Positions 19,747 through 53,720 are shown, numbered from the stretch's first letter. The stretch is 64,000 nucleotides of DNA from Candidatus Nealsonbacteria bacterium (GCA_047456305.1 CP179888.1:253307-317306), one strand, 5' to 3'. The notes: generated by a model from the sequence alone, not told the origin. Numbers and translations are program-made.

Positions 19747-20259
19747 TTATAATGAAGGGTGAAGAAGAGATTTATCTCTTCGACTATTATATCTAAGTTT
19801 GTTTATTTCGTAACCTGCTATCCCAAAAGATACAGCTATATTTAAAGACTCTTTTTTGCCAAACATTGGCAGAGAAACTACTCTATTAACTCTTTTTAAA
19901 ACAGATTTCGAAACTCCCTTTATTTCATTTCCTATTACCAGGGCTAAGGGAAATTTTGCTTTAAACTTGTTATAGGGTAAACTATTTTTTGTTTGTTCCA
20001 AAGCCACAATAAAAACTTTTTCTTTTTTTAATTTTTCAATAACTCCCCAGCATTTCCAGTGATATTCCCATTTTATCCAGTTCTCTGCCCCTAAGGCTGT
20101 TTTTGAAATTTTTGGGTGGGGAGGAGTACCAGAAATTCCACAAAGAAAAATCTTATTTATCCCTAAAACATCGGCTGTTCTGAAAATAGAACCTATATTT
20201 TCCAAACTTCTAATATTATCACAAACGACATAGAATAACAATTCCTTTTTTAACTTCAT
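19747..20259 (-). CDS. SpoU/TrmH-family RNA 2'-O-methyltransferase
   Basis: LENIGSIFRTADVLG..., LVIGNEIKGVS, SLPMFGKKESLNIAVSFGIAGYEI. The last ~15 codons run into a hairpin repeat. Confidence 0.85.
   Translation of the reverse strand: MKLKKELLFYVVCDNIRSLENIGSIFRTADVLGINKIFLCGISGTPPHPKISKTALGAENWIKWEYHWKCWGVIEKLKKEKVFIVALEQTKNSLPYNKFKAKFPLALVIGNEIKGVSKSVLKRVNRVVSLPMFGKKESLNIAVSFGIAGYEINKLRYNSRRDKSLLHPSL
19761..19782. repeat. GAAGAGAT-tt-ATCTCTTC hairpin repeat (inside the 3' end of the trmH-like CDS)
   Basis: gaagaagagatttatctcttcg. The identical core recurs at 34880..34900 and 53699..53716. Confidence 0.85.
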
Positions 20260-20316
20260 TTCAAGATTATATATTTATACATTAGCGAATCAAGGTTCTC
20301 GCCGAAGGCGAGGTTC
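20260..20316 (-). repeat. Promoter-hairpin cassette, copy 2 (upstream of the trmH-like gene)
   Basis: Minus strand reads gaacCTCGCCttcGGCGAGaaccTTGATT-16 nt-TATAAT-cttgaa-ATG. Confidence 0.85.
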
Positions 20317-20385
20317 TTATTTTAAGTATTTTTTAATTTTCTTAAAATCTTCTTCTAATAACTTTTTATTTTGATTTCTTGTCCA

Positions 20386-21270
20386 TTAAATTAATCTGGT
20401 AATTAGAAATCCAATTATCAAAAATAAGGCAATAGGCGGTAGGGCAGGGATAGGTCTTCGGATTTTTTGGCTGGCAAATATCCAAAAACTGAAAAAAAGA
20501 CCAAATAGGGCAAATAGGGCGACAATTAGAGAATTTAAAATTCCTTCAGAAACTAAAGAGGTACAAAGAAGTAAAGGAAAAGCTATGTCTCCTCCGCCTA
20601 AAATTAAGAATTTTCCTCCGGGTTTAACTGTTTTAAGATTTTCTTTAAAGTCAGAAATTTTGGAAGGAACAATTAAAGCTAAAATGGCTCGACTTTCAAT
20701 CATTTCTTTTGCCATCTTTATCATATGTTTGGTGATATTCACTGCGATGAAGTCATAAATTGAAAGGATTATTAAAAGAGCGACCACTATCAAGGGCTCA
20801 AGTCTTAACCCTAAAATGCTACCTACTCCAGCAATTCCGAAAATAATGCAAAGATTGTGAACCAAAATTGTTGGTCTCTTTAACCACCAAAATATTAAAA
20901 TTCCTGCCAAAAATAAAGCGAAAATGTCTAAAATCCATAAACTAAGCAAAAGCGCGCTTCCCCAGAAAACTACTAAAATAAAGATTCCCTTAAATAATAT
21001 TCCTCTTCCTTTTTTAAATTTCCCGAAAAAAGAAACAAGTAAAATTAAGGAAGTGGTTAAGAGAAAATAAAGAAGAAAGTGCCAAAGGGAAATAGCAGGC
21101 AAAGAGATCTCTTGAATTTCTGAGATTCTATTAATTTTGAAGCTAGCTATAATTCCTAAAACTAAAGTCAAAGAAAACAAAAAAGCCTCGAAGAAAAAAA
21201 TTCTCCAAGGGCTTTGAAGAAAGGTGAATTTTATTTCCCCCGGCTCTTTATTTTGATTGTTTTTTGACAT
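20386..21270 (-). CDS. Presenilin / signal-peptide-peptidase-like intramembrane aspartyl protease (A22 family)
   Basis: About 9 TM helices with all three signature motifs in order: YD (LSIYDFIAV), GxGD (LILGGGDIAFP) and PAL (RPIPALPPIAL). Confidence 0.75.
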   Translation of the reverse strand: MSKNNQNKEPGEIKFTFLQSPWRIFFFEAFLFSLTLVLGIIASFKINRISEIQEISLPAISLWHFLLYFLLTTSLILLVSFFGKFKKGRGILFKGIFILVVFWGSALLLSLWILDIFALFLAGILIFWWLKRPTILVHNLCIIFGIAGVGSILGLRLEPLIVVALLIILSIYDFIAVNITKHMIKMAKEMIESRAILALIVPSKISDFKENLKTVKPGGKFLILGGGDIAFPLLLCTSLVSEGILNSLIVALFALFGLFFSFWIFASQKIRRPIPALPPIALFLIIGFLITRLI

Positions 21271-21343
21271 TTTTGATAGATAAATCTACTAGACGTCCGA
21301 TAAGCTAATTTCCCCTTCTTAGCTTGCTTAGATGAGTACTTTT

Positions 21344-22531
21344 TCATACTAATTTGAGTAATTCTTTTACTTTATCTTTCTTTTCCCAGGTAAATTCCGA
21401 CTCTTCCCTGCCAAAATGACCATAACAGGCGGTTTTTCGATAGATGGGCCGCAAAAGATTAAGCTGTTTAATTATTCCGCTTGGTGATAAATCAAAAATT
21501 TTGGGAATAATTTTAACTAATTTTTCTTCAGAAACTTTTCCTGTTCCGAAAGTATCTACACTTACCTCTGTTGGCTTTGTTCCTCCAATGACATAAGACA
21601 GTCTAACTTGGCATTTTTCAGCTAAATTTGCTGCCACAATATTTTTGGCAATATAGCGAGCCATATAGGCTCCTGACCTGTCAACCTTTGTCGAGTCTTT
21701 CCCGCTAAAAGAGCCACCGCCAATAGGAATTTGGGGGCCGTAAGCGTCAACAACATTTTTTCTCCCTGACATACCAGTATCAGAGACCGGTCCCCCAATG
21801 ACAAAGCGACCGGTGTTATTAATATAAATTTTTGTTTTTTTGTCTAATAAATTCTTGTCTACCCAAATTTTTCTATTAAAAATTTGGGCAGATGAACAAA
21901 CAGGTTTAATTACTCTTTTAATAATATCTCTTTTAATTCGATTTAAAGAGACATCGGATTCATGCTGAGCGGCAATTACCACATTGTCCAATCTTTTTGG
22001 TCGGCTATTTTCATATTCTATAGTAACCTGAGATTTTCCATCCGGTCTTAAATAAGGTAAAATTTTCTTTTTTCTAATTTCAGCCAGCCTCATGACCAAT
22101 TTATGAGCTAAGATAATTGGCAAAGGCATCAATTCTGGAGTTTCGTTACAGGCATAACCTACCGAACTACCTTGGTCGCCAGCCCCTTGTTTTTTAGTTC
22201 CGGTTCTTCTCACTCCTCTGGCAATATCAGGCGATTGTCCGTGAATAGTATTAAAAACTCCTACTGTCTTATAATCAAAGCCGTATTCTGGCTTATCATA
22301 GCCAATATCTTTGATTACCTCTCTGGCTAAATTATTCACGTCAACCCAAGTTTTAGTAGTAATTTCTCCGCCAACTATTACATAGCCATTGCCAACCATA
22401 ACCTCACAAGCCACCCGGCCATATTTATCATCCTTTAAAACTGCATCCAAAACAGTGTCAGCAATTTGATCTGCGACTTTGTCGGCGTGTCCAATGGCAA
22501 CTGATTCTGAAGTGAGAAAATATTTTTTCAT
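21344..22531 (-). CDS. metK: S-adenosylmethionine synthetase
   Basis: [20 protein letters not shown]-like N-terminus, [26 protein letters not shown]. 395 aa. Confidence 0.95.
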
Positions 22532-22593
22532 ATTTGAGTTATTTTATCATTTTATTTAAAAGTTTCAACCAGTCTTCTTTGAGCTCCAAGCCT

Positions 22594-23745
22594 TTACAAA
22601 AAAGGCGAAGGGTGAAAAGAAGTTAACCTTCTTTGAGCTTCAATTTTTTCTCGATTTGAAATTTTACTTTTTTGGATACCCTTCTTTATGAAATTTAGCA
22701 ATTTATCGTAGCATCTACGATCTACGAATTCCGGAGTTCCATCTTTCCCCCCGAACGCCCACGAGTATCTGGCTGGATCTTCATAAGAAGGTTTAGCTCC
22801 GTAAATTATTTCGCTGACTAGAGAAAGAGCCCGAATTGTTTTAGGACCTACACCTTTTAATGATAAAAGTTGTTCAAAATTTTTTGGCTCTTGAGATTTG
22901 GCAAAAAAGATGGTTTTTTCAAGCCGTTTCAAGTCAAATTTTTCTTTTTCTATGGGATGATGGTAAAATTCTACATCTTTTAATTCCATTTCGGTGAATC
23001 CTGCCATTCTTTTCTGCCTCATTAGAGAATTAGATTTTTCATTAATCAATTTAATATCTTTTAAAAATGTTTTTGGTTCCTTAGTTACCAATCCAGTTGA
23101 AATTTCTTTATTTTCTCTACTTTCTTTAGCAGTCAGATTTAAAGGTTTAACTTCAACATCAGAAATAATCCCTGAATGGGGTTCTTCAATAAAATCTTTG
23201 ACTTTAGAAGATAACCAGTGATATCTTCGAGCTTTTTGAAGACCTGTGTTCATTCCCTGTTGGACAATAGTATACTGGCCAGACTTTGAGAAAATTAAAT
23301 TATGATGATAGATAGAGAAATTATCCTGAATTAAAGCCGAGTCGACTTTGGCTGATATTTTGCTGGCGTAAATCATTTTGTCGATTTTCTCTATTGGCCA
23401 TCCTAAAAACTCTCCCCAATCCTGAATTTGCTGAGGAGTTTTTCTTGAAGTTTTTCCTTTCCCCCCGCAGATAAAAAGACCAAGGTCTGATTCTAAACCT
23501 CTTAATCCTTCTTTAAGAGCGCCCATTACTGTAGTAGTCAAGCCCGACGAATTCCAGTCAAATGCTAAAACACATCCAAAAGATTGAAACCAAACTGGAT
23601 CCGAAAGACGTTTCAAAAATTCCTCGGTTCCGAATTCCTCAACAATAGCTAAAACAATACCCCGCGACAATCTTTTCATCCTTTCAAATAGCCAATAGGG
23701 GCATCTTCCATAATCTAAGGGAACTGTGGCAATACCTGTTCGCAT
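22594..23745 (-). CDS. DUF763-family protein (archaeal-type, HhH-containing)
   Basis: MRTGIATVPLDYGRCPYWLFERMKRLSRGIV...FQSFGCVLAFDWNSSGLTTTV and HhH LKGVGPKTIRAL. Assigned from memory of the family pattern. Confidence 0.6.
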   Translation of the reverse strand: MRTGIATVPLDYGRCPYWLFERMKRLSRGIVLAIVEEFGTEEFLKRLSDPVWFQSFGCVLAFDWNSSGLTTTVMGALKEGLRGLESDLGLFICGGKGKTSRKTPQQIQDWGEFLGWPIEKIDKMIYASKISAKVDSALIQDNFSIYHHNLIFSKSGQYTIVQQGMNTGLQKARRYHWLSSKVKDFIEEPHSGIISDVEVKPLNLTAKESRENKEISTGLVTKEPKTFLKDIKLINEKSNSLMRQKRMAGFTEMELKDVEFYHHPIEKEKFDLKRLEKTIFFAKSQEPKNFEQLLSLKGVGPKTIRALSLVSEIIYGAKPSYEDPARYSWAFGGKDGTPEFVDRRCYDKLLNFIKKGIQKSKISNREKIEAQRRLTSFHPSPFL

Positions 23746-33940: not shown

Positions 33941-33968
33941 CTTAATATCAAACTATAAACATCCCACA

Positions 33969-34375: not shown

Positions 34376-35500
34376 CTATATCTCGGTGATTAGTAAATCT
34401 AAGGCTGTCTGAGGGTCTATTTTCCCAGTTTTTATATTTAAATCTGCCTGAAAAATTTTTTGGTAGATTTTTTTTAGTTCATCAATTGTAAACCTTTTAG
34501 CTTGTTGAATTGACTTTCTTATTACATAAGGATGTAACTTTAGTTTTTCGCTAAGTATTCGCATATCGTTTACATATAATTCAGTTTTTGATTCGCATGA
34601 TTTTACCAAAAGTAAGTTCCGGAACTGAAAATTTATCATTGAAAGAAGATACAAAGGTGAATCCCCTTTTTCTAAATGTTTATGAATTAACAAAAGAGCC
34701 TGCTTTTTATTTCCTGAAGATATGGCATCGATAGTTTTAAAAATATCGGTTTCGATTTTTGGTCTAACTAAAAGTTCAACATCTTCTTCTCCAATTTCTT
34801 GTTTCTTCTTGTAGTCAAAGAGAACTTCGTTCTCTTTTCCACCTTCGCTCACCGAGCGAGGCGAAGCCGAGCGAAGGTTAAGAAGAGATTTATCTCTTCG
34901 CCTCGCTACGCGCGGCGCTCGGTAACAAACAAGTTTTCTAATTTCATTGCTAATCTGCCAAAGGTCATTCCCTATAAATTCAATTAACTTTCCTAAAGCT
35001 CTATCTGAAACCTGACACTGATATTTTTCAAATTCTTTCTTGACCCAGTTTTTTAATCTTTGACTTCCCAAAAGTTTAAATTCCTGGAATTTTGCCTGCC
35101 CTTTTAGAAAATTAAATAAGGCGTCATTTTTAGAAAACTCACCTTCTTCATAGAATAAAATTATATCCCCCGCACCAGAAACTTCGTTTCGGTGCAGGAC
35201 TGGTCCAGCACCGAGCTCCGCTCTGGTGCTGGGTTTTGAATCTCTGAATTTCTTAGAATTTTCTAAAAATTTTCTTTTAAACTCACTATTGGAAAAAGCG
35301 TTTTTTAATACCATCAATTTTTTTTCCTGAAACATTGAAATTATTTGAAACTCGCCTTTAAATTCCTGGTAGCTATCTTTTTTGAAATCAAAATACTTCA
35401 AATTCAATCCACTTTTGGAAGTTTTTTTGTAGTGCTCAATTATCTCATTCAACTTTTGTCGCGACCTGTAAGTATCAGGTCCATAAAGAAAGATAATCAT
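34376..35500 (-). CDS. holA: DNA polymerase III delta subunit, carrying two in-frame GC-rich repeat insertions
   Basis: MIIFLYGPDTYRSRQKL... N-terminus, C-terminal delta-like helical domain. ATG 35500 preferred; the track start 35515 lies in a hairpin. Confidence 0.75.
   Translation of the reverse strand: MIIFLYGPDTYRSRQKLNEIIEHYKKTSKSGLNLKYFDFKKDSYQEFKGEFQIISMFQEKKLMVLKNAFSNSEFKRKFLENSKKFRDSKPSTRAELGAGPVLHRNEVSGAGDIILFYEEGEFSKNDALFNFLKGQAKFQEFKLLGSQRLKNWVKKEFEKYQCQVSDRALGKLIEFIGNDLWQISNEIRKLVCYRAPRVARRRDKSLLNLRSASPRSVSEGGKENEVLFDYKKKQEIGEEDVELLVRPKIETDIFKTIDAISSGNKKQALLLIHKHLEKGDSPLYLLSMINFQFRNLLLVKSCESKTELYVNDMRILSEKLKLHPYVIRKSIQQAKRFTIDELKKIYQKIFQADLNIKTGKIDPQTALDLLITEI
34817..34923. repeat. 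Composite GC-rich hairpin element inserted in frame in holA (~35 codons)
   Basis: aaagagaac-ttc-gttctcttt + ttccaccttcg... + gaagagat-tt-atctcttc + cgcctcgctacgcgcggcgctcgg. Shares ctcttttccaccttcg with the intergenic copy at 44240. Confidence 0.8.
35172..35232. repeat. GC-rich double-hairpin insertion in frame in holA
   Basis: gcacc-agaaacttcgtttc-ggtgc and ccagcacc-N12-ggtgctgg. Encodes ...STRAELGAGPVLHRNEVSGAG.... Confidence 0.7.
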
Positions 35501-35534
35501 AGACCGAGCTTCCATTTATGGAAGCGAAGGTAAA

Positions 35535-35555
35535 GAAGAGGACTAAGTCCTCTTC
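35535..35555. repeat. GAAGAGGAC-taa-GTCCTCTTC hairpin overlapping the fpg stop codon
   Basis: gaagaggactaagtcctcttc. The tag stop of fpg lies in the loop or stem region. Confidence 0.8.
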
Positions 35556-36460
35556 GCCCTTTGGCAACTAGGACAGTAATGGACACTTCTGCCCCCTAAT
35601 TTTACCCTTTTTATTTTTGTGCCGCAACGCGGACAAGGTTCTCCTTCTCGGCGATAAACTTTTCTTTCTTTATCGAAATATCCTCTTTCTCCAGAAATCC
35701 TCCGAAAATCAGAAATACTTTCTCCACCAAGTTTAATTGCCTTTGCTAAAATTTCTCTCATTGCCTGATAAATTTCTTTCAATTCCTCATCAGTTAATTT
35801 TGAAACATTTTTGAAAGGATAAATTTTCGCCTGCCACAAAATTTCATCAGAGTAAATATTGCCAATCCCAGCAATGACAGTTTGGTCCATTAAAACTTGC
35901 TTTATCTTACCTCTTTTCCCTTTAAAACATTCTTTAAATTTTTCAAAAGTAAAATCTTTTTCTAAGGGTTCCGGGCCAAAAGAACATAATTCCTCTTTAA
36001 GTCCTTCATTATTCCAAAGTTCGACCTTGGCAAATTTTCTTAAATCTGACAGGGCTAACATTTGACCATTATCTAAAGTAAATAATAAATGAATATAGGT
36101 ATTAATTTTCTCCGCCAAGGGTCCGGCAGGAGGAATCCATTTCCCTCTGCTGAATTCCCACTTACCCAGGAGTAAGTGGCCAGTTAATTTTTGATGAATT
36201 AACAAAGAACGGTTCGAGGGGCCCACTTCTGTGGGAGGGCGGTGGGGAGGTATGTAGTCTGATAAATTAAAAATAATATTTTTCCCTCTTCGCCAGATTT
36301 TTTGAATTTTTTTACCCTTGATTTCTTTTTTAAATTGCTCAAAATCTTCGGGTTTTCTTACTACCTTGGGAAAATCGGTCCAAACATCAATAAAAGTCCT
36401 GTTAAGGACCTTTTTATTTAAATCTCGGATTATTGTTTCTACTTCGGGTAATTCCGGCAT
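35543..36460 (-). CDS. mutM: Formamidopyrimidine-DNA glycosylase
   Basis: MPELPEVETI N-terminus (the catalytic Pro2 requires start 36460, not 36484), H2TH, C-terminal zinc finger CPRCGTKIKRVKLGGRSVHYCPSCQ. Confidence 0.9.
   Translation of the reverse strand: MPELPEVETIIRDLNKKVLNRTFIDVWTDFPKVVRKPEDFEQFKKEIKGKKIQKIWRRGKNIIFNLSDYIPPHRPPTEVGPSNRSLLIHQKLTGHLLLGKWEFSRGKWIPPAGPLAEKINTYIHLLFTLDNGQMLALSDLRKFAKVELWNNEGLKEELCSFGPEPLEKDFTFEKFKECFKGKRGKIKQVLMDQTVIAGIGNIYSDEILWQAKIYPFKNVSKLTDEELKEIYQAMREILAKAIKLGGESISDFRRISGERGYFDKERKVYRREGEPCPRCGTKIKRVKLGGRSVHYCPSCQRAKRT
36210..36250. repeat. GC-rich insertion in frame in fpg
   Basis: cggttcgaggggCCCACttctGTGGGagggcggtggggagg encodes PPHRPPTEVGPSNR inside the N-terminal beta-sandwich. 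Confidence 0.55.
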
Positions 36461-41620: not shown

Positions 41621-43003
41621 ATGCCAGAAGTTTCAAAAAAAATTACAGGTCTAATAGAAATTTCTCCCAAAATACTTGCTGAAACTCAAAAGAAAATAAA
41701 AAATATTTCTGATTTTAAGGAAAAGATTGAAGAGTTTTTAAAAAAGAGTGTCTCGGAAATTTTAGAAGTTATTTTGGGAGGGGGAATAAGTCTCGATGTC
41801 TCTGACATTCACATTGAGCCAGAAGAAAATCAAGCTAAAATCCGAGCCAGAATTGATGGAATCTTACAAGATGTAATAATTTTTGATTTAAAAACATATC
41901 AAACCCTTCTCTCTCGGATTAAGCTTGTTTCTGGAATTAAATTAAATATTACTGATCGACCCCAGGATGGGAGATTCTCTATTGTAATGCCACCAGCCCG
42001 CCCAAGTTTTGCAAAACAAAATTTGGGTGGGCCATCTGAGCCAATTGAAATTAGGGCCTCAACCTTGCCAGCTGAGCATGGAGAATCAATTGTCCTGAGA
42101 ATTTTGAACCCAAAAGGCTTAATTGAAATTGAGGAATTAGGGGTGAGAAAAGATTTATTAGAAATTTTTAAAAAGGAAATAAAAAGGCCGAATGGAATGA
42201 TTATTGTTACCGGGCCTACCGGCTGCGGGAAAAGTACAACTCTATATGCCTTTTTAAAAACAATCCAAAAACCAGAGATTAAAATTATAACTATTGAAGA
42301 CCCTATTGAGTATCATTTAAAAGAGATTTCCCAGACTCAAATTTCTCCGGAAAAAGGTTATGATTTTGCCTCAGGTCTCAAATCCATTATGCGCCAAGAC
42401 CCTGATGTAATTTTAGTAGGAGAAATAAGAGATATGGAAACCGCCAAGATTAGTCTCCAGGCAGCCGTAACCGGCCATTTAGTTTTAACTACCTTGCATA
42501 CTAATGATGCTGCTGGAACAGTGGTCAGGTTGGAAGCCTTGGGAGAAAAACCAGTAAACATTGCTCCGGCAATAAACATGGCTGTCGCCCAAAGATTGGT
42601 CAGAAAAGTTTGCCAGAAATGCCTGAAGCTTGAAAAAATTTCTTCGCTTGATTTTAAAAAAATTAAAAAAGCCCTCAAGGAAATCCCAAAGAAAATAATT
42701 AATCCTCCTAATGGGGTTTCTCCACTATTGAAGGGCAAAAGTTCTGCTGCCTTAAAAATCCCTCAAGTTAAAGGGTGTAAAGATTGTAATTTTACAGGTT
42801 TCAGGGGCCGAATCGGGATTTTTGAGGCTTTTTTAGTTGATAATGAGATGGAAAAATTTATTCTAACTTCGCCTTCAATTTCAGCCCTAAGAGAAAAAGC
42901 TATAAAAAAAGGAATGCTCACTATGTACCAGGATGGAATAATAAAGGTCTTAGAAGGAATTACTACTATCAAAGAGGTAGAAAGAGTAACCGGAATGCAA
43001 TGA
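41621..43003 (+). CDS. GspE/PilB-family type II/IV secretion (pilus assembly) ATPase
   Basis: PQDGRF, Walker A GPTGCGKST, Asp box, Walker B ILVGEIRD, His box TGHLVLTTLHTND, tetracysteine CQKC...CKDC. Confidence 0.9.
   Translation: MPEVSKKITGLIEISPKILAETQKKIKNISDFKEKIEEFLKKSVSEILEVILGGGISLDVSDIHIEPEENQAKIRARIDGILQDVIIFDLKTYQTLLSRIKLVSGIKLNITDRPQDGRFSIVMPPARPSFAKQNLGGPSEPIEIRASTLPAEHGESIVLRILNPKGLIEIEELGVRKDLLEIFKKEIKRPNGMIIVTGPTGCGKSTTLYAFLKTIQKPEIKIITIEDPIEYHLKEISQTQISPEKGYDFASGLKSIMRQDPDVILVGEIRDMETAKISLQAAVTGHLVLTTLHTNDAAGTVVRLEALGEKPVNIAPAINMAVAQRLVRKVCQKCLKLEKISSLDFKKIKKALKEIPKKIINPPNGVSPLLKGKSSAALKIPQVKGCKDCNFTGFRGRIGIFEAFLVDNEMEKFILTSPSISALREKAIKKGMLTMYQDGIIKVLEGITTIKEVERVTGMQ
41996..42032. 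repeat. 37-nt near-perfect palindromic element inside the pilB-like CDS
   Basis: gcccgcccaagttttg-caaaa-caaaatttgggtgggc forms a 16-bp stem. Same family as 58271..58305. Confidence 0.85.
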
Positions 43004-43062
43004 AATCTCCGCTTTCATTTTAACGCTTCGCCTCGCTTGCTGCGCTCGCTCGGCTCGCGTGA

Positions 43063-43233: not shown

Positions 43234-44217
43234 ATGAGAAATTTGTCAAGAGTAACGGTTCTCCTTCTTATTTTTTTCTGGTTAGGGACGACTGGAATAT
43301 TTTCAACTAACTTTATTTTTGCTACAGAAAAAATAGATATTAATACCGTTCCCATTGAAGATTTGGTTAAAATTATTCATATAGGAGAAAGTAGGGCAAG
43401 AGAATTGATTTCTCTAAGGCCCTTCTCTTCTTTAGATGAACTCACCAAAATAAAAGGTATAGGCGAAGCGAGGCTTAGGGATATCAAAGAACAGGGTTTG
43501 GCGTGGGTCACCCCTCATCAATCAGAAGTTCAACCTGAAGCAAAACCTCAACCCAATCCTGAGCTTCAGCCTATTGAGGAGTCCGAAATCCAACCCGAGC
43601 CAAAACCAATAACTTATCCTTTAGCTATTGTTATAAACGAACTTCTTCCTAATCCTGAGGGAATACCAGATGCTGAAGGAGAATGGATTGAAATTTTTAA
43701 TCAGAATAATTTTGAAGTTTTGCTTTCTGACTGGAAAATAACTGACACAGTAGGAAAAATTACTACTTATTCTCTCCCAAAAGGAACAAAAATTCCTCCT
43801 CAGGGCTTTTTAGTTCTTTCTCGGCCAACTACTAAAATCACTTTAAATAATGATGGTGATGGTCTAAAACTTATTCAACCTGATGGAAAAATAGTGGATG
43901 AGGTAACTTATGAAAAAGCTCCTCGAGGCCAGTCCTTTAACCTTGTTAACTCTGATTGGGCCTGGAACACGAATTTAACCCCTGGGGCAGCAAATTTTAT
44001 TCCTTTTGCTCAACCAGAAGAAAAAACAGAAACTGAACTCCTGAAAGATAAATCTGCTACTGAACCCGAAACAAAAAGAGAATTAGCAGCCGCAGGTCTA
44101 CAAATCTCAAAACCCTCAAAGTCTTTATTTGTTTTATTAATTGCTTTGGCTCTCGCCATTTCCTCAGGAATAATAATCTTAGTCTTAAAAAAGAAACTAT
44201 CAAGTACCCGAGCGTAG
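43234..44217 (+). CDS. ComEA-like helix-hairpin-helix DNA-binding protein with a lamin-tail domain and C-terminal TM anchor
   Basis: Signal/TM segment; HhH INTVPIEDLVKIIHIGESRARELI...IKGIGEARLRDI; LTD IVINELLPNPEG...GEWIEIFN; C-terminal TM LFVLLIALALAISSGIIILVL. Confidence 0.75.
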   Translation: MRNLSRVTVLLLIFFWLGTTGIFSTNFIFATEKIDINTVPIEDLVKIIHIGESRARELISLRPFSSLDELTKIKGIGEARLRDIKEQGLAWVTPHQSEVQPEAKPQPNPELQPIEESEIQPEPKPITYPLAIVINELLPNPEGIPDAEGEWIEIFNQNNFEVLLSDWKITDTVGKITTYSLPKGTKIPPQGFLVLSRPTTKITLNNDGDGLKLIQPDGKIVDEVTYEKAPRGQSFNLVNSDWAWNTNLTPGAANFIPFAQPEEKTETELLKDKSATEPETKRELAAAGLQISKPSKSLFVLLIALALAISSGIIILVLKKKLSSTRA

Positions 44218-44221
44218 CGAA

Positions 44222-44303
44222 GTCAAAGAGCGCTTCGCGCTCTTTTCCACCTTCGTCCCGCAAACGGGACTCGGTGGCTGAAGAAGAATAAATATTCTTC
44301 GCC
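44222..44303. repeat. Array of three GC-rich hairpins (aaagagcg/cgctcttt; ccacc..gtcccg/cgggac..ggtgg; gaagaata/tattcttc)
   Basis: Read directly from the sequence. Begins right after the stop of the ComEA/LTD gene. Confidence 0.8.
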
Positions 44304-44308
44304 TAGGG

Positions 44309-44337: not shown

Positions 44338-44343
44338 TAAATT

Positions 44344-45096: not shown

Positions 45097-45102
45097 CGAA
45101 TC

Positions 45103-45171
45103 GAAGAACATTCGTTCTTCTCTACCCTTCGCTGCGGCTCGGGTAGATGAAGAAGAGAACGTAGTTCTCTT
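45103..45171. repeat. Array of three GC-rich hairpins (gaagaac/gttcttc; ctaccc/gggtag; aagagaac/gttctctt)
   Basis: Read directly from the sequence, between yebC and the next gene. Confidence 0.8.
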
Positions 45172-45189
45172 TGCCCTTAAAATTTAGTC

Positions 45190-45504: not shown

Positions 45505-45507
45505 AAC

Positions 45508-49066: not shown

Positions 49067-50197
49067 CTATGTCCCTTTAATTGGCATTGCAACATAGATA
49101 TAACTTTCATCCCCTACTGGTTTTAAAACTCCAGGGCCTACCTCGCCATTTAGCTCAAAAATCACCTCTGAACTTTTTATATTCAAGAGCCCGCTATTTA
49201 AAAATCTATAATTAAAAGAAATTTCTTCCTCTTTCCCTTTTGTTTTCCCTGAGAGTAAAGAATGGTATTCTCCAGTTTCGGGATTCTGGCTGGAAATCTC
49301 TACTATTTCTTTTTTAGGGTCAATTTTAAATTTGACCTCATTTATTTTCCCGCTAAAAAGACTGGCCGCTTTAATCTGATTTAAAAATTCCTGCTTATCT
49401 AAAATAACCTGAGTTTCATATTTTTTAGGAATAATTTCTTGATAGTTTGGGTATTCTCCTTCGATTAATTTTGAAGTAAGATGAATTTCTGGATGGGGGG
49501 TTTCGGACATTGTAGACTCAAATAAAATTTGGTTAGGGTTAACCAGGATTTTAATCTCTCCTTGTTTTTCTCCAAAAATATTAATTATTTCTTTTGCTGT
49601 TTTTTGGGGCAGAATCAGGGAGATTTCCTTTTCAATTGTAAGTGGTTTTTTTAAAAACAGAGTTTTTTCACCTAATCTAAAACTATCAGTAGCTGCCATT
49701 TTTATTAAGTCTTTTTGGATAAGGAAATGGATGCCTGAAATTTCAGGCTTTACTGTAGAAGGAAGAGCAATGTCTACAATTTGATTTAAGGCCTGACAAA
49801 AAGAATAACTGTCAAGAGAAAATGAGATGCCTTCTGATATTTCAGGAATAATCGGAAAATCTTCTGAGCTTTGTCCTTTTATTTTGGTTTTATAACCCTC
49901 ACATTCAACAGATAGAATTTGATTATGGGCTGTTAATTCAACCGGTTTTTCAGGTAAGAGACTTATAAAAGTTGACAAAATAGAACTTGGAACAGTAACC
50001 TCACCTTCTTTTTCTATTTTAGAAAGAACCCACCATTTAATTCCTATTTCTAAGTCTGTCGCTGCTAATAATAAAAAGTTTTTTTCAGCTTTTAAAAGAA
50101 GATTTCTAAGAATAGGTAAAGTAAAAGATTTAGAGGAAACTCTTTCAATGATGTTAAGTCCTTGTTTTAATTTATTTTGTAATATTATTAATTTCAT
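49067..50197 (-). CDS. dnaN: DNA polymerase III beta sliding clamp
   Basis: 376 aa with three-domain length. LPILRNLLLKA, MAATDSFRL. Sits directly downstream of dnaA. Confidence 0.9.
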   Translation of the reverse strand: MKLIILQNKLKQGLNIIERVSSKSFTLPILRNLLLKAEKNFLLLAATDLEIGIKWWVLSKIEKEGEVTVPSSILSTFISLLPEKPVELTAHNQILSVECEGYKTKIKGQSSEDFPIIPEISEGISFSLDSYSFCQALNQIVDIALPSTVKPEISGIHFLIQKDLIKMAATDSFRLGEKTLFLKKPLTIEKEISLILPQKTAKEIINIFGEKQGEIKILVNPNQILFESTMSETPHPEIHLTSKLIEGEYPNYQEIIPKKYETQVILDKQEFLNQIKAASLFSGKINEVKFKIDPKKEIVEISSQNPETGEYHSLLSGKTKGKEEEISFNYRFLNSGLLNIKSSEVIFELNGEVGPGVLKPVGDESYIYVAMPIKGT

Positions 50198-50255
50198 TAT
50201 AGTTATAGGTAATGGGTAAAACTATTTTTTTAAATAGATTAGTCAAAAGAAAACT

Positions 50256-50342
50256 AGTGGAAAACGAGCAAAGAAGTAGTTAATTAATTAGGGATAATAA
50301 AAAGAAGAAAAGAAAAAGAAATTTTTAAAGAGATTTTCCACT
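50256..50342. promoter_or_regulatory. Inverted pair of DnaA-box-like 9-mers TTTTCCACT in the dnaA-dnaN spacer
   Basis: agtggaaaa at 50256..50264 and ttttccact at 50334..50342, plus tttttcaca at 50357..50365. The spacer is AT-rich. Confidence 0.4.
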
Positions 50343-50402
50343 TTTAATACCATGCCTTTTTCACAAATTGACCAAGGAAATTTTTAGCAAAAGGGTAAAA
50401 AC

Positions 50403-51752
50403 TCAGATGCTAAAAACAAGTTGCCTGATTAACTCAATTTCTTCCTTTAAATTTTCGTTTGTTTCAAGTTCTTTTAAAATTTTCTTGTAGGAATGAATAG
50501 CTGTGGTATGGTCTTTTCCCCCTATTTTCCTTCCTATAAAAGGGTAGGAACTTTTTAAGTCTTCCCTTAATAAATACATCGCAATCTGGCGAGGTCTGAC
50601 GATTTCTCTTTTACGTGAGGAATCTAAAAGGTTATTTTCTTTAAGGTCGTAAAACTTAGCTACCGCCCTGATTATTTTTTTCGGTGTGGCTATTTTAGTT
50701 GGAGAAAAGAGTAATTTTTTAAGCAAAGATTTAGCTTCTTCGGGCTCTAAGGATTGGTTATTTAACTTTTGATAAGCGACTAATCTGTTCAAAGCTCCTT
50801 CAAGTTCCCTAATATTTCTTTGGATGTTTGATGCGATATAGACAAGAGTTTCTTCGGGAGGGCTAATTTTTTTTTCTTGGGCCTTTGTTTTAAGAATAGC
50901 CATTCTTGTTTCGAAATCAGGATAACCAATATCAGCTATCATTCCTCCCTCAAACCTAGACCTTAGTCTCTCCGTGAGTGCAGGGATAGCCTTTGGGGGC
51001 CGGTCAGAGGAAAGAACTATTTGTTTATTTCTTTCGTAAAGGGTATTAAAAGTATGGAAAAACTCTTCTTGGGTTTTTTCTTTCCCAGCCAGAAATTGAA
51101 CATCATCAATAATAAGGACATCTATCGCCCGGTATTTCGTTTTAAAACTTTCCATAGTATGATTTTTAATTGCCGTTACCACCCCAGAGGTGAATTTTTC
51201 AGAAGGAATATATTTTAATTTTTTTTCTGGAAAATTTTTAGTTATCTCATTACCGATTGCCTGCAGTAAATGGGTTTTGCCGAGACCCACCCCTCCATAA
51301 ACAAATAAAGGATTGTAGATAAGGCCAGGATCTTTTGAGGATGCCCAGGCAGCGGCCTGTGGTAGTTCATTAAAAGGGCCGACTACAAAATTTTCAAAAG
51401 TATAGCGGGGGTTAAGATTAGTATCTTTGTCAATTTTTAATTCTTGAAACTCAAGCTGGTCCGATTCTGGGTAAGAGAAAGAGGGTTTTTTAAAAACTTT
51501 TAATCCCTGTCGGACAACAGTATATTTAATCTCTTTAATTTCTTCGTCCAAACTATGCAAGAGTTTAAAAATAATTTTGTTGTATTTATTTTCAAGCCAC
51601 TCTTTGGCAAAAGAATTGGGAACAGAAACTATAACCTGGCCTTCTTTCTGAGAAAGAATCCCGGTATTTTTAAACCATGTACTAAAATTAGCCTGGGAAA
51701 TATTTAATTGGATTTGGGCCAAAACCGTCTGCCACAATTCCTCCTTGGTCAT
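50403..51752 (-). CDS. dnaA: Chromosomal replication initiator DnaA
   Basis: Walker A GGVGLGKTHL, IDDVQFL, sensor motifs, C-terminal DNA-binding KDHTTAIHSYKKI. A GGGGA SD lies 7 nt upstream. Confidence 0.95.
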   Translation of the reverse strand: MTKEELWQTVLAQIQLNISQANFSTWFKNTGILSQKEGQVIVSVPNSFAKEWLENKYNKIIFKLLHSLDEEIKEIKYTVVRQGLKVFKKPSFSYPESDQLEFQELKIDKDTNLNPRYTFENFVVGPFNELPQAAAWASSKDPGLIYNPLFVYGGVGLGKTHLLQAIGNEITKNFPEKKLKYIPSEKFTSGVVTAIKNHTMESFKTKYRAIDVLIIDDVQFLAGKEKTQEEFFHTFNTLYERNKQIVLSSDRPPKAIPALTERLRSRFEGGMIADIGYPDFETRMAILKTKAQEKKISPPEETLVYIASNIQRNIRELEGALNRLVAYQKLNNQSLEPEEAKSLLKKLLFSPTKIATPKKIIRAVAKFYDLKENNLLDSSRKREIVRPRQIAMYLLREDLKSSYPFIGRKIGGKDHTTAIHSYKKILKELETNENLKEEIELIRQLVFSI

Positions 51753-52060
51753 AAGTGTTCCCCTAAAATTAAAAGATAAAATATTTTTGCGTTTTTAATT
51801 ACGCCTTAATTTTTTGGTTTTTCTTTCTTAATAAATTATACCACAAAGTCAATCGGATAGTAAAATAAACATCAAATTCAGAAAGATGTTAATAAACTGG
51901 GGAGAACTTGTGGGTTATAAAAAACTTAATAGTCGGTTAATATTCTAATCCAAATTAATAGAAAATTTCTGAAAAGAATCAACGGGAAAGAAATATATTG
52001 CCAACACTTTCCTTAAACTCAAACAGGTTGACAGATATTTTTAGGAGGTTAATAATAAAA

Positions 52061-52218
52061 GTGAGGGGGTGCGAGGGAATCTCCTCTAAGGACACGGTTT
52101 TAATGGAGGAGGTTTGAGGTACGTGCCTGGTTACGTCCGACACCAGTGAGTCTCTGATAAACTGATATCATTAAGGCCGCTCCCCCTCACTAAAGAAGAG
52201 GTGCTTCACCTCTTTTTT
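52061..52218 (+). ncRNA. Candidate structured RNA or riboswitch-like leader with an intrinsic terminator (family not identified)
   Basis: GC-rich island. The closing stem gtgaggggg(t)gcg / cgc(t)ccccctcac encloses ~105 nt with internal helices (cuccuc/gaggag, cugg/ccag, gaua/uauc). It is followed by aagaggtg-ctt-cacctcttTTTT at 52196..52218, 30 nt before ATG 52248. Confidence 0.45.
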
Positions 52219-52247
52219 AGTTTTTAAAGATGTGTTAAACTAAAAAT

Positions 52248-52820
52248 ATGAGATACAAAATTGCTGTTTCTGGAGCAGCCCAGATTGGCCATTGCTGTAA
52301 GGGGATTAAGGAGTTGTCTAAAAAAATTGGGCGAGAAATTTTTCGCCAAAATTGTGTCCTGGTTACTGGAGCTACAACCGGTGTCCCCTATTTTGCTGCC
52401 TTAGGATGTAAGGAGGTGGGAGGATTCAGTATTGGTTTTTCACCAGCAACCTCTGAAGCCGCCCACTTAAAAAGATATAAACTTCCAGTGGATGCTTTTG
52501 ATGTAATGGTTTATACCGGCGCTGATTATGTGGGGAGAAATGTAATTATGACAAAGGCAGTAGATGGAGTGATTATTATCTGCGGGAGAATGGGGACCTT
52601 GCATGAATTCGCCACTGCTTTTGAAATTCAAAAACCAATTGCGGTTTTAGAAGAAACAGGGGGAACGGCTGATAAAATTAAGAAGATTGCCACTGGTCCT
52701 TATCGAGGGGTTAAAAAAATTATTTATGAAAAAAATCCCAAAGAATTGGTAAAAAAATTAATTGAATTAATTAAAAAAGAGAAAAAAGAAAATTCTAAAC
52801 TAAAAGGTCGACTCAAATAG
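52248..52820 (+). CDS. TIGR00725/LOG-like Rossmann-fold nucleotide-binding protein
   Basis: IAVSGAA...LVTGATTGVPYFAALG...GVIIICGRMGTLHEF pattern. Confidence 0.6.
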   Translation: MRYKIAVSGAAQIGHCCKGIKELSKKIGREIFRQNCVLVTGATTGVPYFAALGCKEVGGFSIGFSPATSEAAHLKRYKLPVDAFDVMVYTGADYVGRNVIMTKAVDGVIIICGRMGTLHEFATAFEIQKPIAVLEETGGTADKIKKIATGPYRGVKKIIYEKNPKELVKKLIELIKKEKKENSKLKGRLK

Positions 52821-52840
52821 AAAATAAGTTTTTAAAAATT

Positions 52841-53116
52841 ATGCCAAATGAAGAACCTCAAGTTCCCGAGGAAGGAAAATTAGTGGGGGAAATTACTCAC
52901 TATTTCGGGAATATAGGGGTGGCGGTTATTAAGCTTTCTGATACCTTAAAAGCAGGAGATAGTATTAGAATTGTTGGAGGGGACACTGATTTTACTCAGG
53001 CTGTAGAATCTATGGAAATCGAGCACAAAAAAATTGAAACAGCTAAGGCTGGAGATTCTGCTGGTTTAAAAGTTGAGCAAAAAGTAAGAGAGGGATATAA
53101 GGTATACAAAGTGTAA
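52841..53116 (+). CDS. Small EF-Tu-domain-2-like beta-barrel protein
   Basis: GEITHYFGNIGVAVIKLSDTLKAGDSIRIVG...IETAKAGDSAGLKV. Confidence 0.55.
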   Translation: MPNEEPQVPEEGKLVGEITHYFGNIGVAVIKLSDTLKAGDSIRIVGGDTDFTQAVESMEIEHKKIETAKAGDSAGLKVEQKVREGYKVYKV

Positions 53117-53142
53117 AGGCAACACCAATATACTAATTAGGC

Positions 53143-53209
53143 ACTAATTTACGAATTTTAGCAATTCGTATAATTAGTACATTCCTGTGAAATTCGTATT
53201 TGATTAGTG
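53143..53209. promoter_or_regulatory. Operator-like inverted repeat plus a third half-site upstream of mgtC
   Basis: actaatttacgaatt-ttagc-aattcgtataattagt, followed by aattcgtatttgattagt. Confidence 0.4.
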
Positions 53210-53218
53210 CAGCATCTT

Positions 53219-53671
53219 ATGGAGTTTTTAGTTAACTCTCAAATTAGAATTATTTTACAATTATTACTGGCTGCTTTTTTGGGCGGACTAATCGGCCTAG
53301 AAAGAGAATATAAGAGAAAAGAAGCCGGACTTCAAACTTATAGTTTGGTAGCTTTGGGGACTTGTCTTTTTACTGTGATTACTTTTGAATTATTTAATTT
53401 TTTTATCAACAAAGAAGGTATTAGTTTTGACCCTTCCAGAATAATTCAGGCCATAGCTGTTGGAATTGGTTTTATTGGAGCCGGGGTGATTTTCCGCCAG
53501 CCATCAGGGGTTGTAGGTTTAACTACTGCTGCCGGTTTATGGACAACTGCGGCTATTGGAATTGCTATAGGAGTTAAGCTTTATTTTTTAGCTATTTTTG
53601 CTACTTTTTTAGCTCTTCTGGTATTGGCCGGCTTTGGAATATTGGAAGAGAAAATTTTTAAGAAGTCTTGA
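53219..53671 (+). CDS. mgtC: MgtC/SapB-family membrane protein
   Basis: LLAAFLGGLIGLEREYKRKEAGLQTYSLVALG...GAGVIF...GLTTAAGLWTTAAIGIAIG. The alternative GTG start is at 53207. Confidence 0.88.
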   Translation: MEFLVNSQIRIILQLLLAAFLGGLIGLEREYKRKEAGLQTYSLVALGTCLFTVITFELFNFFINKEGISFDPSRIIQAIAVGIGFIGAGVIFRQPSGVVGLTTAAGLWTTAAIGIAIGVKLYFLAIFATFLALLVLAGFGILEEKIFKKS

Positions 53672-53720
53672 CCGCTTAAGCGATAGCGCAGAGCAAAAGA
53701 AGAGATTTATCTCTTCGCCC
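53672..53720. repeat. GC-rich hairpin element with a GAAGAGAT-tt-ATCTCTTC core
   Basis: cgcttaagcg...gaagagatttatctcttcgccc lies directly after the mgtC stop. Confidence 0.8.

Follow-up and report, generated by a model that had tools for sequence, protein, structure and literature searches.

Two-hairpin repeat units dispersed through Candidatus Nealsonbacteria and related Patescibacteria are probably REP/RPE-like mini-elements inserted as discrete blocks

REP, BIME and REPIN sequences, which are mobilised by RAYT (Y1 HUH) transposases, are short, high-copy hairpin repeats that occur in clusters and presumably function as single-stranded DNA in folded form (PMC3116915). The Rickettsia palindromic elements (RPE; sequence families RPE-1…10), which are ~100-150 bp long, are specific to Rickettsia, where they form in-frame coding insertions that add a peptide, without a transposase (PMC10969869). 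MITEs (PMC10969869) are AT-rich derivatives of a recognisable IS that usually measure 100-500 bp and carry terminal inverted repeats (TIRs) and target-site duplications (TSDs). GC-rich palindromic mini-elements of ~30-60 nt are also found in mitochondria, i.e., the GC clusters of yeast (GC42), the double-hairpin elements (DHE) of Allomyces and the repetitive hairpin-forming elements (RHE) of sponges (PMC4478555, PMC2800124).

Here, we studied a 64,000-nt stretch of DNA from a Candidatus Nealsonbacteria bacterium (GCA_047456305.1 CP179888.1:253307-317306, in the following the window) together with related loci. Units of 45-60 nt are dispersed through the small genomes of Candidatus Nealsonbacteria and related Patescibacteria (candidate-phyla bacteria). 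Like the Rickettsia RPE, they are palindromic repeats in the small AT-rich genome of a host-dependent bacterium. Both are found between genes and, in frame, within unrelated genes, which stay intact and gain a short peptide, and no accompanying transposase has been found for either. They are set apart from the RPE by description, i.e., by their length of 45-60 nt, a two-hairpin GA/GAA plan, nesting and the Patescibacteria host, and we expect no homology at the sequence level. With REP/REPIN sequences they share short high-copy hairpins kept as structure plus a few bases, insertion next to or into each other and the lack of TIRs and TSDs. However, REPs are extragenic by definition while one third of the copies are intragenic here, and REPs accompany and flank their cognate RAYT gene, whereas no RAYT was found in the DNA sampled here. 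Furthermore, the hairpin foot has no conserved GTAG-type tetranucleotide (GTAG or CTAC is seen at some ends only), and the replicative unit consists of two different adjacent hairpins rather than an inverted doublet of one REP.

The mitochondrial elements likewise invade an AT-rich compact genome, show sporadic presence, merge or nest and are occasionally coding, and they likewise lack a recognised mobilising enzyme. They are, however, organellar and unrelated in sequence, and some GC clusters have putative target duplications, of which none is consistent here, such that the comparison is an analogy only. The small dispersed repeats (SDR) of heterocystous cyanobacteria, reportedly described by Elhai et al. 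in 2008 (as cited in PMC3116915), are said to be 21-27 nt long, mostly intergenic and without a recognised transposase. They reportedly resemble our units in being mobile, far smaller than MITEs, often nested and located within hairpins, but differ in sequence and in the phylum of the host, and are reportedly not characterised by in-frame entry into essential genes. IS-derived MITEs are also non-autonomous, short, multi-copy and prone to stem-loop folding of transcripts or DNA, but TIRs, TSDs, a size of 100-500 bp, AT-richness and a recognisable IS parent are all absent here. We found no published description of these two-hairpin units.

The original prediction had listed dispersed hairpins with an AAGA…TCTT outer stem. 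All of them are found, exactly or within a few bases of where they had been placed (19764-19781, 34817-34837, 34882-34899, 35535-35555, 44225-44245, 44283-44300, 45103-45120, 45153-45171 and 53699-53716), with the one at ~33985 being imperfect and bulged; the 18-mer GAAGAGATTTATCTCTTC occurs exactly three times. It could be argued that such hairpins simply result from composition or from local mutation (GAAGA/TCTTC coding words, template-switch palindromes), given that AAGA and TCTT are common words in a 35% G+C genome rich in Lys/Glu codons and that hairpin-templated repair could yield compensatory pairs without selection. But perfect hairpins with an AAGA foot (stem of at least 7, loop 2-8) number 13 in the window versus 2.2 +/- 1.2 (maximum 5) in 40 dinucleotide-preserving block shuffles. 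That is, the excess over the composition expectation, on which the prediction had made the family depend, is about six-fold. Furthermore, covariance-model E-values reach down to 1e-18, whole blocks of 45-57 nt are present or absent at exact junctions, and units of identical sequence recur across many genomes and at loci unrelated to each other. The enrichment, the exact-junction blocks, the model scores and the spread of one 21-mer (see below) effectively refute the by-product explanation, to which we assign next to no chance.

To avoid circularity, compensation was assessed by anchoring solely on GAAGA…TCTTC with a spacing of 7-14 nt. Within the window, 6/11 such anchors enclose at least three additional nested Watson-Crick pairs; for the window plus related loci these are 196/421 (chance ~1.6%), with 36 distinct inner arms among the paired anchors. 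When 147 distinct copies are aligned to the model, pairing holds in 97.7% of cells compared to 86.6% in shuffles, changes on both sides are found in 201 versus 39 cells, and pairing falls to 39-67% when the partner is shifted by 1-3 columns. The stems are thus retained through compensatory change, as had been claimed. On the defined unit strand we count 48 G·T wobbles versus 21 A·C mismatches, a comparison biased by the model's RNA scoring.

In the related loci (0.79 Mb), the covariance model detects 274 units. A 21-mer from the hairpin is found in 104 contig stretches, all of them Patescibacteria MAGs, where we estimate ~0.3 by chance; viral contigs provide no matches to it. Enrichment, model matches and copies across related loci establish a genuine dispersed family. 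The further claim of selection on structure rather than sequence holds in that structure is kept, but is too simple, since this 21-nt version is letter-perfect in all 104 stretches.

The hairpin had been taken as the repeated unit. It is real but not standalone, being only half of the unit: the AAGA…TCTT hairpin is the 3' module of a 45-60-nt element with a second hairpin upstream. The plan reads [ACC(C)-GA-variable inner hairpin-GAA-GG(G)T], 1-3 nt, [(G/A)A(A/T)GA…TC(T/A)TC] and G(ACT/CCY), where each module is a 17-30-nt hairpin. The upstream module 1 has a conserved GA/GAA internal loop, whose unpaired purines GA…GAA are invariant across copies, and a covarying outer stem of its own; covariation is seen in all three helices of the unit. 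A 3' flank TCGCC is indeed common but represents one of two frequent tails, i.e., among 133 distinct units GCCT and GCCC make up 44 and GACT 27. With ACC(C)GAG… at one end and …TCTTCG(ACT/CCY) at the other, the two ends of the unit do not complement each other. Units are GC-enriched in host genomes of ~35% G+C. Predicted DNA folds match the two-hairpin model (z = -2.5 to -6 in 4/5 window units folded), with predicted hairpin energies of -7 to -19 kcal/mol. While module 1 is strand-asymmetric, the second hairpin is nearly palindromic and would therefore fold alike in transcripts of either orientation. No Rfam 15 family matches the units: over the whole window, a single tRNA reaches a gathering score, and nothing relevant is found at E<=1 over 44100-45300.

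Within the 64-kb window, the covariance model, whose construction the prediction had proposed, yields 10 full-length matches. The complete 46-nt unit ACCC-GA-ATTATAAT-GAA-GGGT-GAA-GAAGAGATTTATCTCTTC-GACT at 19740..19785 (+; 64.5 bits, E=2.8e-18; hairpin 19764-19781) sits between a tRNA (19632-19703, minus) and the 3' end of a SpoU/TrmH-like ORF (19747-20259, minus; Pfam SpoU_methylase), whose final residues …SRRDKSLLHPSL it encodes. A degenerate unit at 22584..22639 (+; 25.7 bits, E=3.7e-6) overlaps ORF 22594-23745 (minus) at its 3' end and has its hairpin, AAAGAAG-TTAAC-CTTCTTT, at 22616-22634. Directly 3' of the stop of the T2SS-E-like ORF 41621-43003 lies the unit 42994..43061 (-; 25.1 bits, regex parse; hairpin AATGAAA-GCGGAGA-TTTCATT at 42999-43019). 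The 53671..53720 unit (+; 38 bits) combines a variant module 1, ACCGCTTAAGCGATAGCGCAGAGC, with the common hairpin (53699-53716) and follows immediately on the stop of the MgtC-family ORF 53207-53671; this variant is also found 3' of tRNA genes in L017 and L061.

Hairpin clusters after stop codons, described earlier as arrays, are present, but the one at 44207..44305 is a unit within a unit and no tandem of equivalents. This 99-nt composite (+; 24.8 bits at 44275-44305(+)) has an outer unit TACCCGAGCGTAGCGAA … GGCTGAAGAAGAATAAATATTCTTCGCCTA with hairpin 44283-44300, into whose first module a unit in minus orientation is nested at 44221-44275 (hairpins 44225-44245 and 44251-44266; 29.1 bits at 44220-44276(-)). 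The stop codon of ORF 43234-44217 falls within the insertion. At 45100..45144 (-; 65.1 bits) we find the 45-nt unit ACCCGAGCCGCAGCGAAGGGTAGAGAAGAACGAATGTTCTTCGAT with hairpin 45103-45120, abutted by a partial unit or solo hairpin at 45144..45177 (+; 16.6 bits, E=0.0026; AAGAGAAC-GTA-GTTCTCTT at 45153-45171).

One copy had correctly been located in holA (ORF 34376-35515, minus). Unit e1 (34811..34923, -), delimited by its presence/absence in relatives, lies in frame on the holA coding strand, measures 57 nt without its guest and has boundaries ambiguous by 3 nt (TAC/GTA); its hairpin 34817-34837 reads AAAGAGAAC-TTC-GTTCTCTTT on the plus strand. The loop of e1's inner hairpin hosts, in opposite orientation, the nested unit e2 (34851..34904, +; 53-54 nt, 41.3 bits), ACC-GA-GCGAGGCGAAGCCGAGC-GAA-GGT-TAA-GAAGAGATTTATCTCTTC-GCCT, with hairpin 34882-34899. 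A 58-nt unit (35501..35558, +; 33.8 bits) separates the holA start codon from the fpg end, and its hairpin GAAGAGGAC-TAA-GTCCTCTTC (35535-35555) provides a new fpg stop codon in the loop. The predicted stop-codon overlaps thus apply to fpg as well as to the SpoU/TrmH-like ORF, which ends within the 19740-19785 unit. A further in-frame holA insert of 66 nt at 35168..35233 (no strand assigned), recognised by presence/absence in relatives, is GC-rich and forms three hairpins without the AAGA hairpin; no further copies are found in ~1 Mb sampled. This insert belongs to another family that shows the same phenomenon.

Next, we compared the window with related loci. Among syntenic relatives (L001, L003, L005; 88-98% DNA identity), each unit is either there or cleanly missing as a whole block, with polymorphic sites including holA, the fpg/holA junction and positions after gene ends. 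Unit e1 is absent from L001, present guest-free in L003 and present with guests in the window and L005. Unit e2 occurs in the window, L005 and L111 and is missing at that site in L003, L112 and L110, while one relative has a third nested unit, e3 (45 nt), within holA e1. The 66-nt insert is shared by the window, L003 and L110 and absent from L001, L005, L112 and L111. In L001, fpg and holA overlap by 4 nt without the 35501..35558 unit, the 44207..44305 composite is missing, and a different small repeat occupies the 42994..43061 site; overall, its 21 kb of syntenic sequence show zero model matches compared to nine in the respective stretch of the window. Unit density thus differs strongly among close relatives. 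Near-identical copies of the 45100..45144 unit are found at unrelated loci in relatives, including the inside of holA and of a homoserine dehydrogenase gene in L005. In UvrB, both the units and their sites vary from lineage to lineage.

That is, insertions land in intergenic DNA, across stop codons, within genes and within one another. The units are probably REP/RPE-like selfish mini-elements of 45-60 nt that are recognised as folded DNA and inserted as discrete blocks. They would be non-autonomous, with a trans-acting enzyme that recognises the shape of a single-stranded fold or an extruded cruciform together with a small number of bases, similar to REP/REPIN-RAYT and IS200/IS605 ends. Such shape-based recognition would conserve the structure while inner stems differ between sub-families. 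Selection would then spare copies only where they are tolerated, i.e., at gene ends, in disordered protein loops and within older copies, with in-gene units translated into short loop peptides.

With regard to the mobilising enzyme, the units show no terminal inverted repeats, the mapped junctions no consistent target duplication (0-3 nt ambiguity), and the five or six mapped junctions no common target motif. Insertion of the IS200/IS605 type (PATE-like) takes place 3' of a fixed tetra-/pentanucleotide and without target duplication. At six junctions here, the left flanks differ (GTTAC, TATA, TCAT, GTTC, GCTC, AAGTA). Single-strand insertion of this type is usually orientation-biased, whereas unit strands are unbiased with respect to local GC skew (74 positive vs. 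76 negative; 35 vs. 34 at strongly skewed loci). A tblastn search of ~0.93 Mb with approximate IS200/RAYT queries gave spurious matches only (LepA, UPRT), and no transposase of any kind was found in this sampled DNA. No gene recurrently adjoins units; the unit-flanked ORFs are housekeeping genes. The search for a RAYT/TnpA-REP-like gene had been part of the original prediction; the REP-like lead was a reasonable direction, but REP membership is not established because no such gene was found in the ~0.93 Mb sampled with these approximate queries. An HUH/Y1-type single-strand transposase is our leading guess for the mobiliser, albeit a tentative one and not a result.

The conservation of orthologous copies is harder to reconcile with selfish spread. 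Between holA genes with 69% identity (52% at third positions), the e1+e2 pair retains 94.6%, and e1 (98%) and the 66-nt insert (94%) are similarly conserved where the host is 65% identical. Orthologous copies thus reach ~94-98% identity, third codon positions included, while host third positions are at ~50%, and the holA e1 variant is found in holA orthologues only. Judged by these alignments, their conservation far exceeds what would be expected of a selfish insert in decay, which points to nucleotide-level selection in place or very site-specific re-insertion. Simple selfish spread explains neither.

One may therefore ask whether the units serve the host as nucleic-acid signals that selection maintains, with mobility secondary; they may, e.g., be a protein binding or recognition site, a DNA-uptake-type signal in DNA scavengers or an mRNA-stability hairpin. 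Beside the orthologue identity, this would fit the letter-perfect 21-mer in 104 contig stretches of many MAGs, the invariant unpaired GA/GAA bases, the missing transposase in the sampled DNA and the near-palindromic second hairpin with its same fold in either transcript orientation. Nevertheless, we consider a host signal improbable: individual copies are missing from close relatives without any trace of compensation (zero in L001 vs. nine in the syntenic stretch of the window), density varies strongly among them, units insert into and disrupt other units, and copies lie inside essential genes in either orientation and any open frame. Moreover, known uptake sequences arise via point substitution and not as 45-57-nt hairpin blocks. 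Likewise unlikely is a joint reading, in which the 45-nt unit is among the smallest bacterial mobile units, its mover is not a recognisable HUH/DDE transposase, and copies are kept by nucleotide-level selection even in essential genes. Here, ~95% identity where host synonymous sites are saturated would imply a conserved trans-acting partner and a role in symbiotic, DNA-scavenging cells. If this were true, the candidate roles would be an uptake, recombination, defence, replication or repair signal, and the folded GA/GAA double hairpin would be a new Patescibacteria-specific recognition module.

Finally, we evaluated unit location relative to genes for 150 units. Within long ORFs lie 49/150 (23 sense, 26 antisense), 26/150 overlap ORF ends, and about half of the copies are intergenic. 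Open stretches of at least 150 codons embed 47 units, which use all six frames, mostly four, and yield recurrent peptides. All five sized coding insertions (57, 54, 45, 66 and 42 nt) are multiples of three, and the ORFs remain open; in holA, AlphaFold pLDDT is below 50 at residues 93-115 and 200-237, i.e., at the two insertion sites. Copies at gene ends, as had been noted, could act in cis on transcripts as factor-independent terminators, 3'-end protectors or RNA-processing sites. The intergenic half, the 26 units at ORF ends, several units that carry the upstream gene's stop codon and the predicted energies of -7 to -19 kcal/mol are in accordance with this, and E. coli REPs stabilise upstream mRNA. 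On the other hand, unit orientation shows no bias relative to flanking genes (150 units) despite the strand-asymmetric module 1, and one third of the copies are in ORFs, among them holA and uvrB, essential genes in which a terminator would be lethal. Together, these two observations argue against a strand-specific transcript-level role as the family's reason. In addition, there is no Rfam family match, near-identical relatives differ in presence at the same gene junctions, and 9/10 window copies have no U-tract. A transcript-level role is thus very unlikely, and the gene-end location of the presumed selfish units is best explained by where insertions are tolerated. In contrast to intrinsic terminators, family copies are followed by CGCC or CGAC instead of a U-tract, many are intragenic, and their orientation is random, consistent with the earlier view that they are not classical terminators. 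The T-run is confined to AAGAGGTG-CTT-CACCTCTT at 52196..52214 (+), followed by six T, which scores just 7.1 bits (E=2.3) and was rejected as a family member; it is an ordinary intrinsic-terminator-like hairpin.

The family of AAGA-footed hairpins is real, with more structure than first seen, and every hairpin listed in the original prediction is found in the sequence. An 18-mer, GAAGAGATTTATCTCTTC, occurs in three exact copies (at 19764, 34882 and 53699). Counting perfect hairpins with a stem of at least 7, a loop of 2-8 and AAGA at the foot, we find 13 in the window compared to 2.2 ± 1.2 (maximum 5) in 40 dinucleotide-preserving shuffles done in 2-kb blocks, i.e., the hairpins exceed what composition produces. 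Compensatory stem variation was assessed by a search anchored on the outer words GAAGA…TCTTC only (spacing 7-14 nt), such that inner pairs are not selected for. At least three further nested Watson-Crick pairs are present in 6/11 matches from the window and in 196/421 matches from the window plus related loci, the latter with 36 different inner arms. The chance expectation is about 1.6%, and the claimed compensation is thus borne out.

The prediction is incomplete as to the repeat unit, for the hairpin does not stand alone. Aligned copies show a larger unit with two hairpins, of which the AAGA hairpin is the 3' half. Read 5' to 3', the first module consists of an outer stem strand ACC, ACCC, ATC or GCC, followed by GA, a variable inner hairpin, GAA and the closing strand GGT, GGGT, GAT or GGC. 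After 1 to 3 nt follows (G/A)A(A/T)GA(R)…loop…(Y)TC(T/A)TC, and the unit ends with G(ACT or CCY)-3'. Its shortest form has 45 nt; one related locus (L087) holds three such copies in a head-to-tail array. On the strand defined in this way, GNA triloops with a closing C-G pair are frequent in the hairpins, and GA faces GAA in the internal loop. A K-turn was rejected for this loop, since, judged by eye, the bases that follow GAA pair with the 5' strand and covary in Watson-Crick fashion (ACC/GGT, ATC/GAT, GCC/GGC). Nearest-neighbour DNA folding yields the two-hairpin structure on either strand for 4/5 window units folded, the defined strand being favoured over its complement by about 1 kcal/mol in the same 4/5. 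The 133 distinct parsed units have 78 different second hairpins between them, and the seemingly conserved outer stem also occurs in GATGA…TCATC and AATGA…TCATT versions.

A covariance model built from 30 diverse short copies finds ten full-length matches in the window (E-values from 1.7e-18 to 2.5e-5), all of them within 19.7-53.7 kb, and 274 units at E≤0.001 in 0.79 Mb of related loci plus the window. Covariation is observed in all three helices of 147 distinct model-aligned copies: 97.7% of cells are paired (86.6% in shuffles), 201 cells are changed on both sides (39 in shuffles), and sliding the partner columns by 1-3 reduces pairing to 39-67%. This alignment was fitted to the model, and the anchored test serves as the independent check. 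Rfam contains no matching known RNA family for the units.

How units come and go is visible in syntenic DNA of relatives (L001/L002, L003/L004 and L005; 88-98% identical to the window), where nucleotide alignments show clean presence or absence of blocks. The holA product has 379 aa in the window vs. a modal length of 311-315 aa in homologues and 315 aa in insertion-free relatives, and its protein alignment reveals nested insertions at two sites with a patchy distribution. A 57-nt unit (e1) is present in the window, L003 and L005 and absent in L001; the e1 copies of the window and L005, not that of L003, hold a unit of 53-54 nt (e2) in their inner loop; and L005 alone carries a further 45-nt unit within the e1 hairpin. 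A 58-nt unit separates the start of holA from the end of fpg and shifts the fpg stop codon into a hairpin loop, while both genes instead overlap by 4 nt in L001. The 99-nt block after ORF 43234-44217 is one unit inside the first module of another, i.e., a 'three-hairpin long form' at 44207-44305 is rejected as a single element; the composite at 45100-45177 is only partly resolved into units. All resolved nestings (3/3) have opposite orientation. The 45-nt unit at 45100-45144 has near letter-for-letter copies in holA and a homoserine dehydrogenase gene of L005 and in several other genomes, and in UvrB both the units and their positions vary with the lineage. At the mapped junctions we find neither terminal inverted repeats (TIRs) nor a shared target word, and any duplication is ambiguous and at most 0-3 nt. 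A MITE is ruled out, given that TIRs and target-site duplications (TSDs) are missing. Searching the 150 best units for further empty sites gave two more informative pairs only.

From these best 150 units, 75 are intergenic, 26 lie across ORF ends and 49 are wholly within long ORFs (23 sense, 26 antisense); of the sampled DNA, an estimated 88% is coding. Where an intergenic unit lies between tandem genes, it has the orientation of the genes in 20 cases and the opposite one in 23, and no replication-strand bias is seen (unit strand vs. local GC skew, 74 against 76). These results argue against a strand-specific function at the transcript level as the reason for the family. They also agree with the prediction that the hairpins are not classical terminators, a reading that is ruled out by the missing T-run, the many intragenic copies and the random orientation. 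The only T-run after such a hairpin is found at 52196-52214, and that hairpin scores as a non-member.

As the window has genes for RtcB, archease and RtcA, we considered splicing or bypass of the units at the RNA level. This is disfavoured, because the measured coding insertions (57, 54, 45, 66 and 42 nt) are all multiples of three and units of either orientation leave the ORFs open. In total, 47 units lie within stretches that stay open for at least 150 codons, where all six frames are used, mostly four of them; recurrent unit-encoded peptides are RRDKSLL(H/Y)PSLRLG and EGEE(D/S)KSSSSPFAxARE. For holA, the sequence predicts the junction-spanning peptide …LVCYRAPRVARRRDK…, and an AlphaFold model of the window protein has pLDDT <50 at residues 93-115 and 200-237, i.e., at the two insertion sites, both flanked by confidently predicted elements. 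Together, these observations are in line with intragenic copies being translated as tolerated loops.

The 21-mer AAGAAGAGATTTATCTCTTCG occurs in 104 stretches of a species-representative genome collection, for which we estimate about 0.3 matches by chance. All 85 listed titles are Patescibacteria-type or unclassified-bacterium MAGs, named among them Nealsonbacteria, 'Parcubacteria group', Paceibacter normanii and generically labelled bins. A phage vector was rejected, as the 21-mer has no match in viral contigs. The 21 kb of L001 contain no unit at all vs. nine in the syntenic part of the window; unit load thus differs sharply among close relatives.

At orthologous sites, conservation is far higher in the copies than in the gene that hosts them. 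Comparing the window with the more distant locus L111, holA codons are 68.8% identical (third positions 52%) and e1 plus e2 94.6% (third positions also 94.6%). In locus L110, the holA host sequence is 65% identical to the window (third positions 49%), while its e1 is 98% identical to the L003 copy. The same holds for a 66-nt holA insertion of a different family, which lacks the AAGA hairpin (93.9% between L110 and the window, third positions 95.5%) and for which about 1 Mb yields no further copy. The divergence of host codons reaches as far as the junctions, which leaves no co-conversion tract. Relatives nearer to the window lack the insertions compared here. The e1 variant was rejected as a multi-copy master, since a metagenome scan matched only two contigs, both holA orthologues. 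Two readings remain: old insertions under nucleotide-level selection that were precisely lost several times, or highly site-specific, recurrent insertion. Conservation in place exceeds what simple selfish spread explains.

Discrete insertion or loss, nesting, dispersal of identical copies, structural covariation and a few invariant unpaired purines, all without TIRs, TSDs or orientation bias, characterize the units. We consider them probably a mobile mini-element. That is, they may be non-autonomous selfish elements whose folded form would be recognised by a trans-acting enzyme, with selection then leaving copies only at gene ends, in protein loops and in older copies. As a mechanism, REP/REPIN-RAYT or IS200/IS605 chemistry comes nearest, which leaves no duplication and allows precise excision (PMC3116915). 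However, no such gene is found in the approximately 0.93 Mb searched, the replication-strand bias is absent and one third of the copies is intragenic. For these reasons our confidence in a mobile mini-element stays short of high, and an HUH enzyme as its specific mobilising agent appears doubtful. The transposase search with approximate IS200 and RAYT queries gave false matches only (LepA, uracil phosphoribosyltransferase), and guilt by association, i.e., clustering 879 ORFs from unit-bearing loci and listing unit-flanked ORFs, gave housekeeping genes only.

Among the miniature insertion elements that form hairpins, of the REP/RPE/GC-cluster type, the units are a new family. The tiny genomes of candidate-phyla bacteria are usually described as poor in mobile DNA. 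Functionally closest is the Rickettsia palindromic element, which lacks a transposase and colonises the genes of a reduced AT-rich genome in frame (PMC10969869). The units do likewise, with no transposase found, but are smaller by a factor of two to three, differ in their defined architecture and occur in another phylum. They share the hairpin logic with REP/REPIN, which in contrast are extragenic and RAYT-linked. A striking analogy exists to mitochondrial GC clusters and double-hairpin elements, GC-rich palindromes of 30-60 nt that merge and nest in compact AT-rich genomes (PMC4478555, PMC2800124). Full-text searches of literature other than subscription journals turned up no account of such elements for Patescibacteria, Parcubacteria or Nealsonbacteria. 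What stands out is the units' size, nesting, frequent in-frame presence in essential candidate-phyla genes and conservation in place. Close relatives owe a visible share of their sequence differences to this hairpin mini-element, which lengthens essential proteins (holA 379 aa vs. 315 aa), shifts stop codons and gives rise to new C-termini. Gene calling, protein-family length statistics and structure prediction are thereby affected in these organisms, and unit presence or absence provides natural markers for strain tracking. After Rickettsia, this is a second independent bacterial case of palindromic repeats written into proteins, where strong orthologous conservation and no transposase found raise the testable question of how such elements move and persist.

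Further differences to L001 concern GC-rich insertions without AAGA hairpin, i.e., the 66-nt one in holA (35168-35233, in frame), 42 nt in fpg (36216-36257, in frame) and about 138 nt in the interval between the S20 gene and uvrB (33958-34095), with a partial relative in locus L108. The mechanical fpg ORF 35543-36484 (-) starts with MLGAPFGR, upstream of the canonical N-terminus MPELPEVE, and L001 has a different sequence in this stretch; translation probably begins at the second Met. Absent from L001 are about 26.5-30.9 kb, carrying PdxS/PdxT and a GH130 phosphorylase, and 21.7-23.8 kb, comprising neighbour ORF 22594-23745 and most of ORF 21344-22531, which we take to be the S-adenosylmethionine synthetase gene; L001 retains only a 97-aa C-terminal remnant of that protein. 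A 72-nt direct repeat (19467-19538 / 20268-20339, 82% identical) with core TTAGCGAATCAAGGTTCTCGCCGAAGGCGAGGTTC and a CTCGCC-GAAG-GCGAG hairpin flanks a tRNA and a SpoU-methylase gene. This SpoU-methylase gene is missing from L001, which has the repeat at 2811-2845 and 19444-19478. This is a second small repeat family, possibly marking cassette-like gain or loss.

Another hairpin family, (G)AGCACATAA…TTATGTGCT(CGG), lies at gene boundaries (11460-11481, 18916-18941, 36476-36510, 45072-45097); its last copy holds the stop codon of the YebC/TACO1-family ORF 44344-45081. The 104-aa ORF 45190-45504 (+) has no Pfam match, sits at the position of RuvC in L001 (344-838) and shows, by eye, a D…D-x-K-like motif (NDIFGIIDLLAVKK); the resolvase may have been replaced here by a non-orthologous protein. 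Upstream of the ComEA-like ORF 43234-44217, an intergenic block of about 130 nt (43068-43197), closed by TTAACCCCG…CGGGGTTAA, is well conserved in L001, where the DNA just upstream of it is replaced by different repeats. Without an Rfam match at gathering score, it is a candidate structured RNA or leader.

The output of a generic repeat finder was dominated by purine-rich low-complexity coding sequence. ORF 41-2434 (797 aa) is very Glu/Lys-rich and contains a 300-nt internal direct repeat (381-680 / 792-1091, 92% identical). With Intein_splicing, LAGLIDADG_3, Hint and PHP_C matches, the 832-aa product of 54222-56720 (+) looks like an intein-bearing, polymerase-like PHP-domain protein. The cumulative GC skew has its minimum near 40-48 kb, dnaN (49067-50197) and dnaA (50403-51752) are both on the minus strand, and a 500-nt intergenic region (51753-52247) ends with a terminator-like hairpin (52196-52214 plus T6). 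The stretch 49067-52250 probably represents the origin region and may include a small RNA gene.
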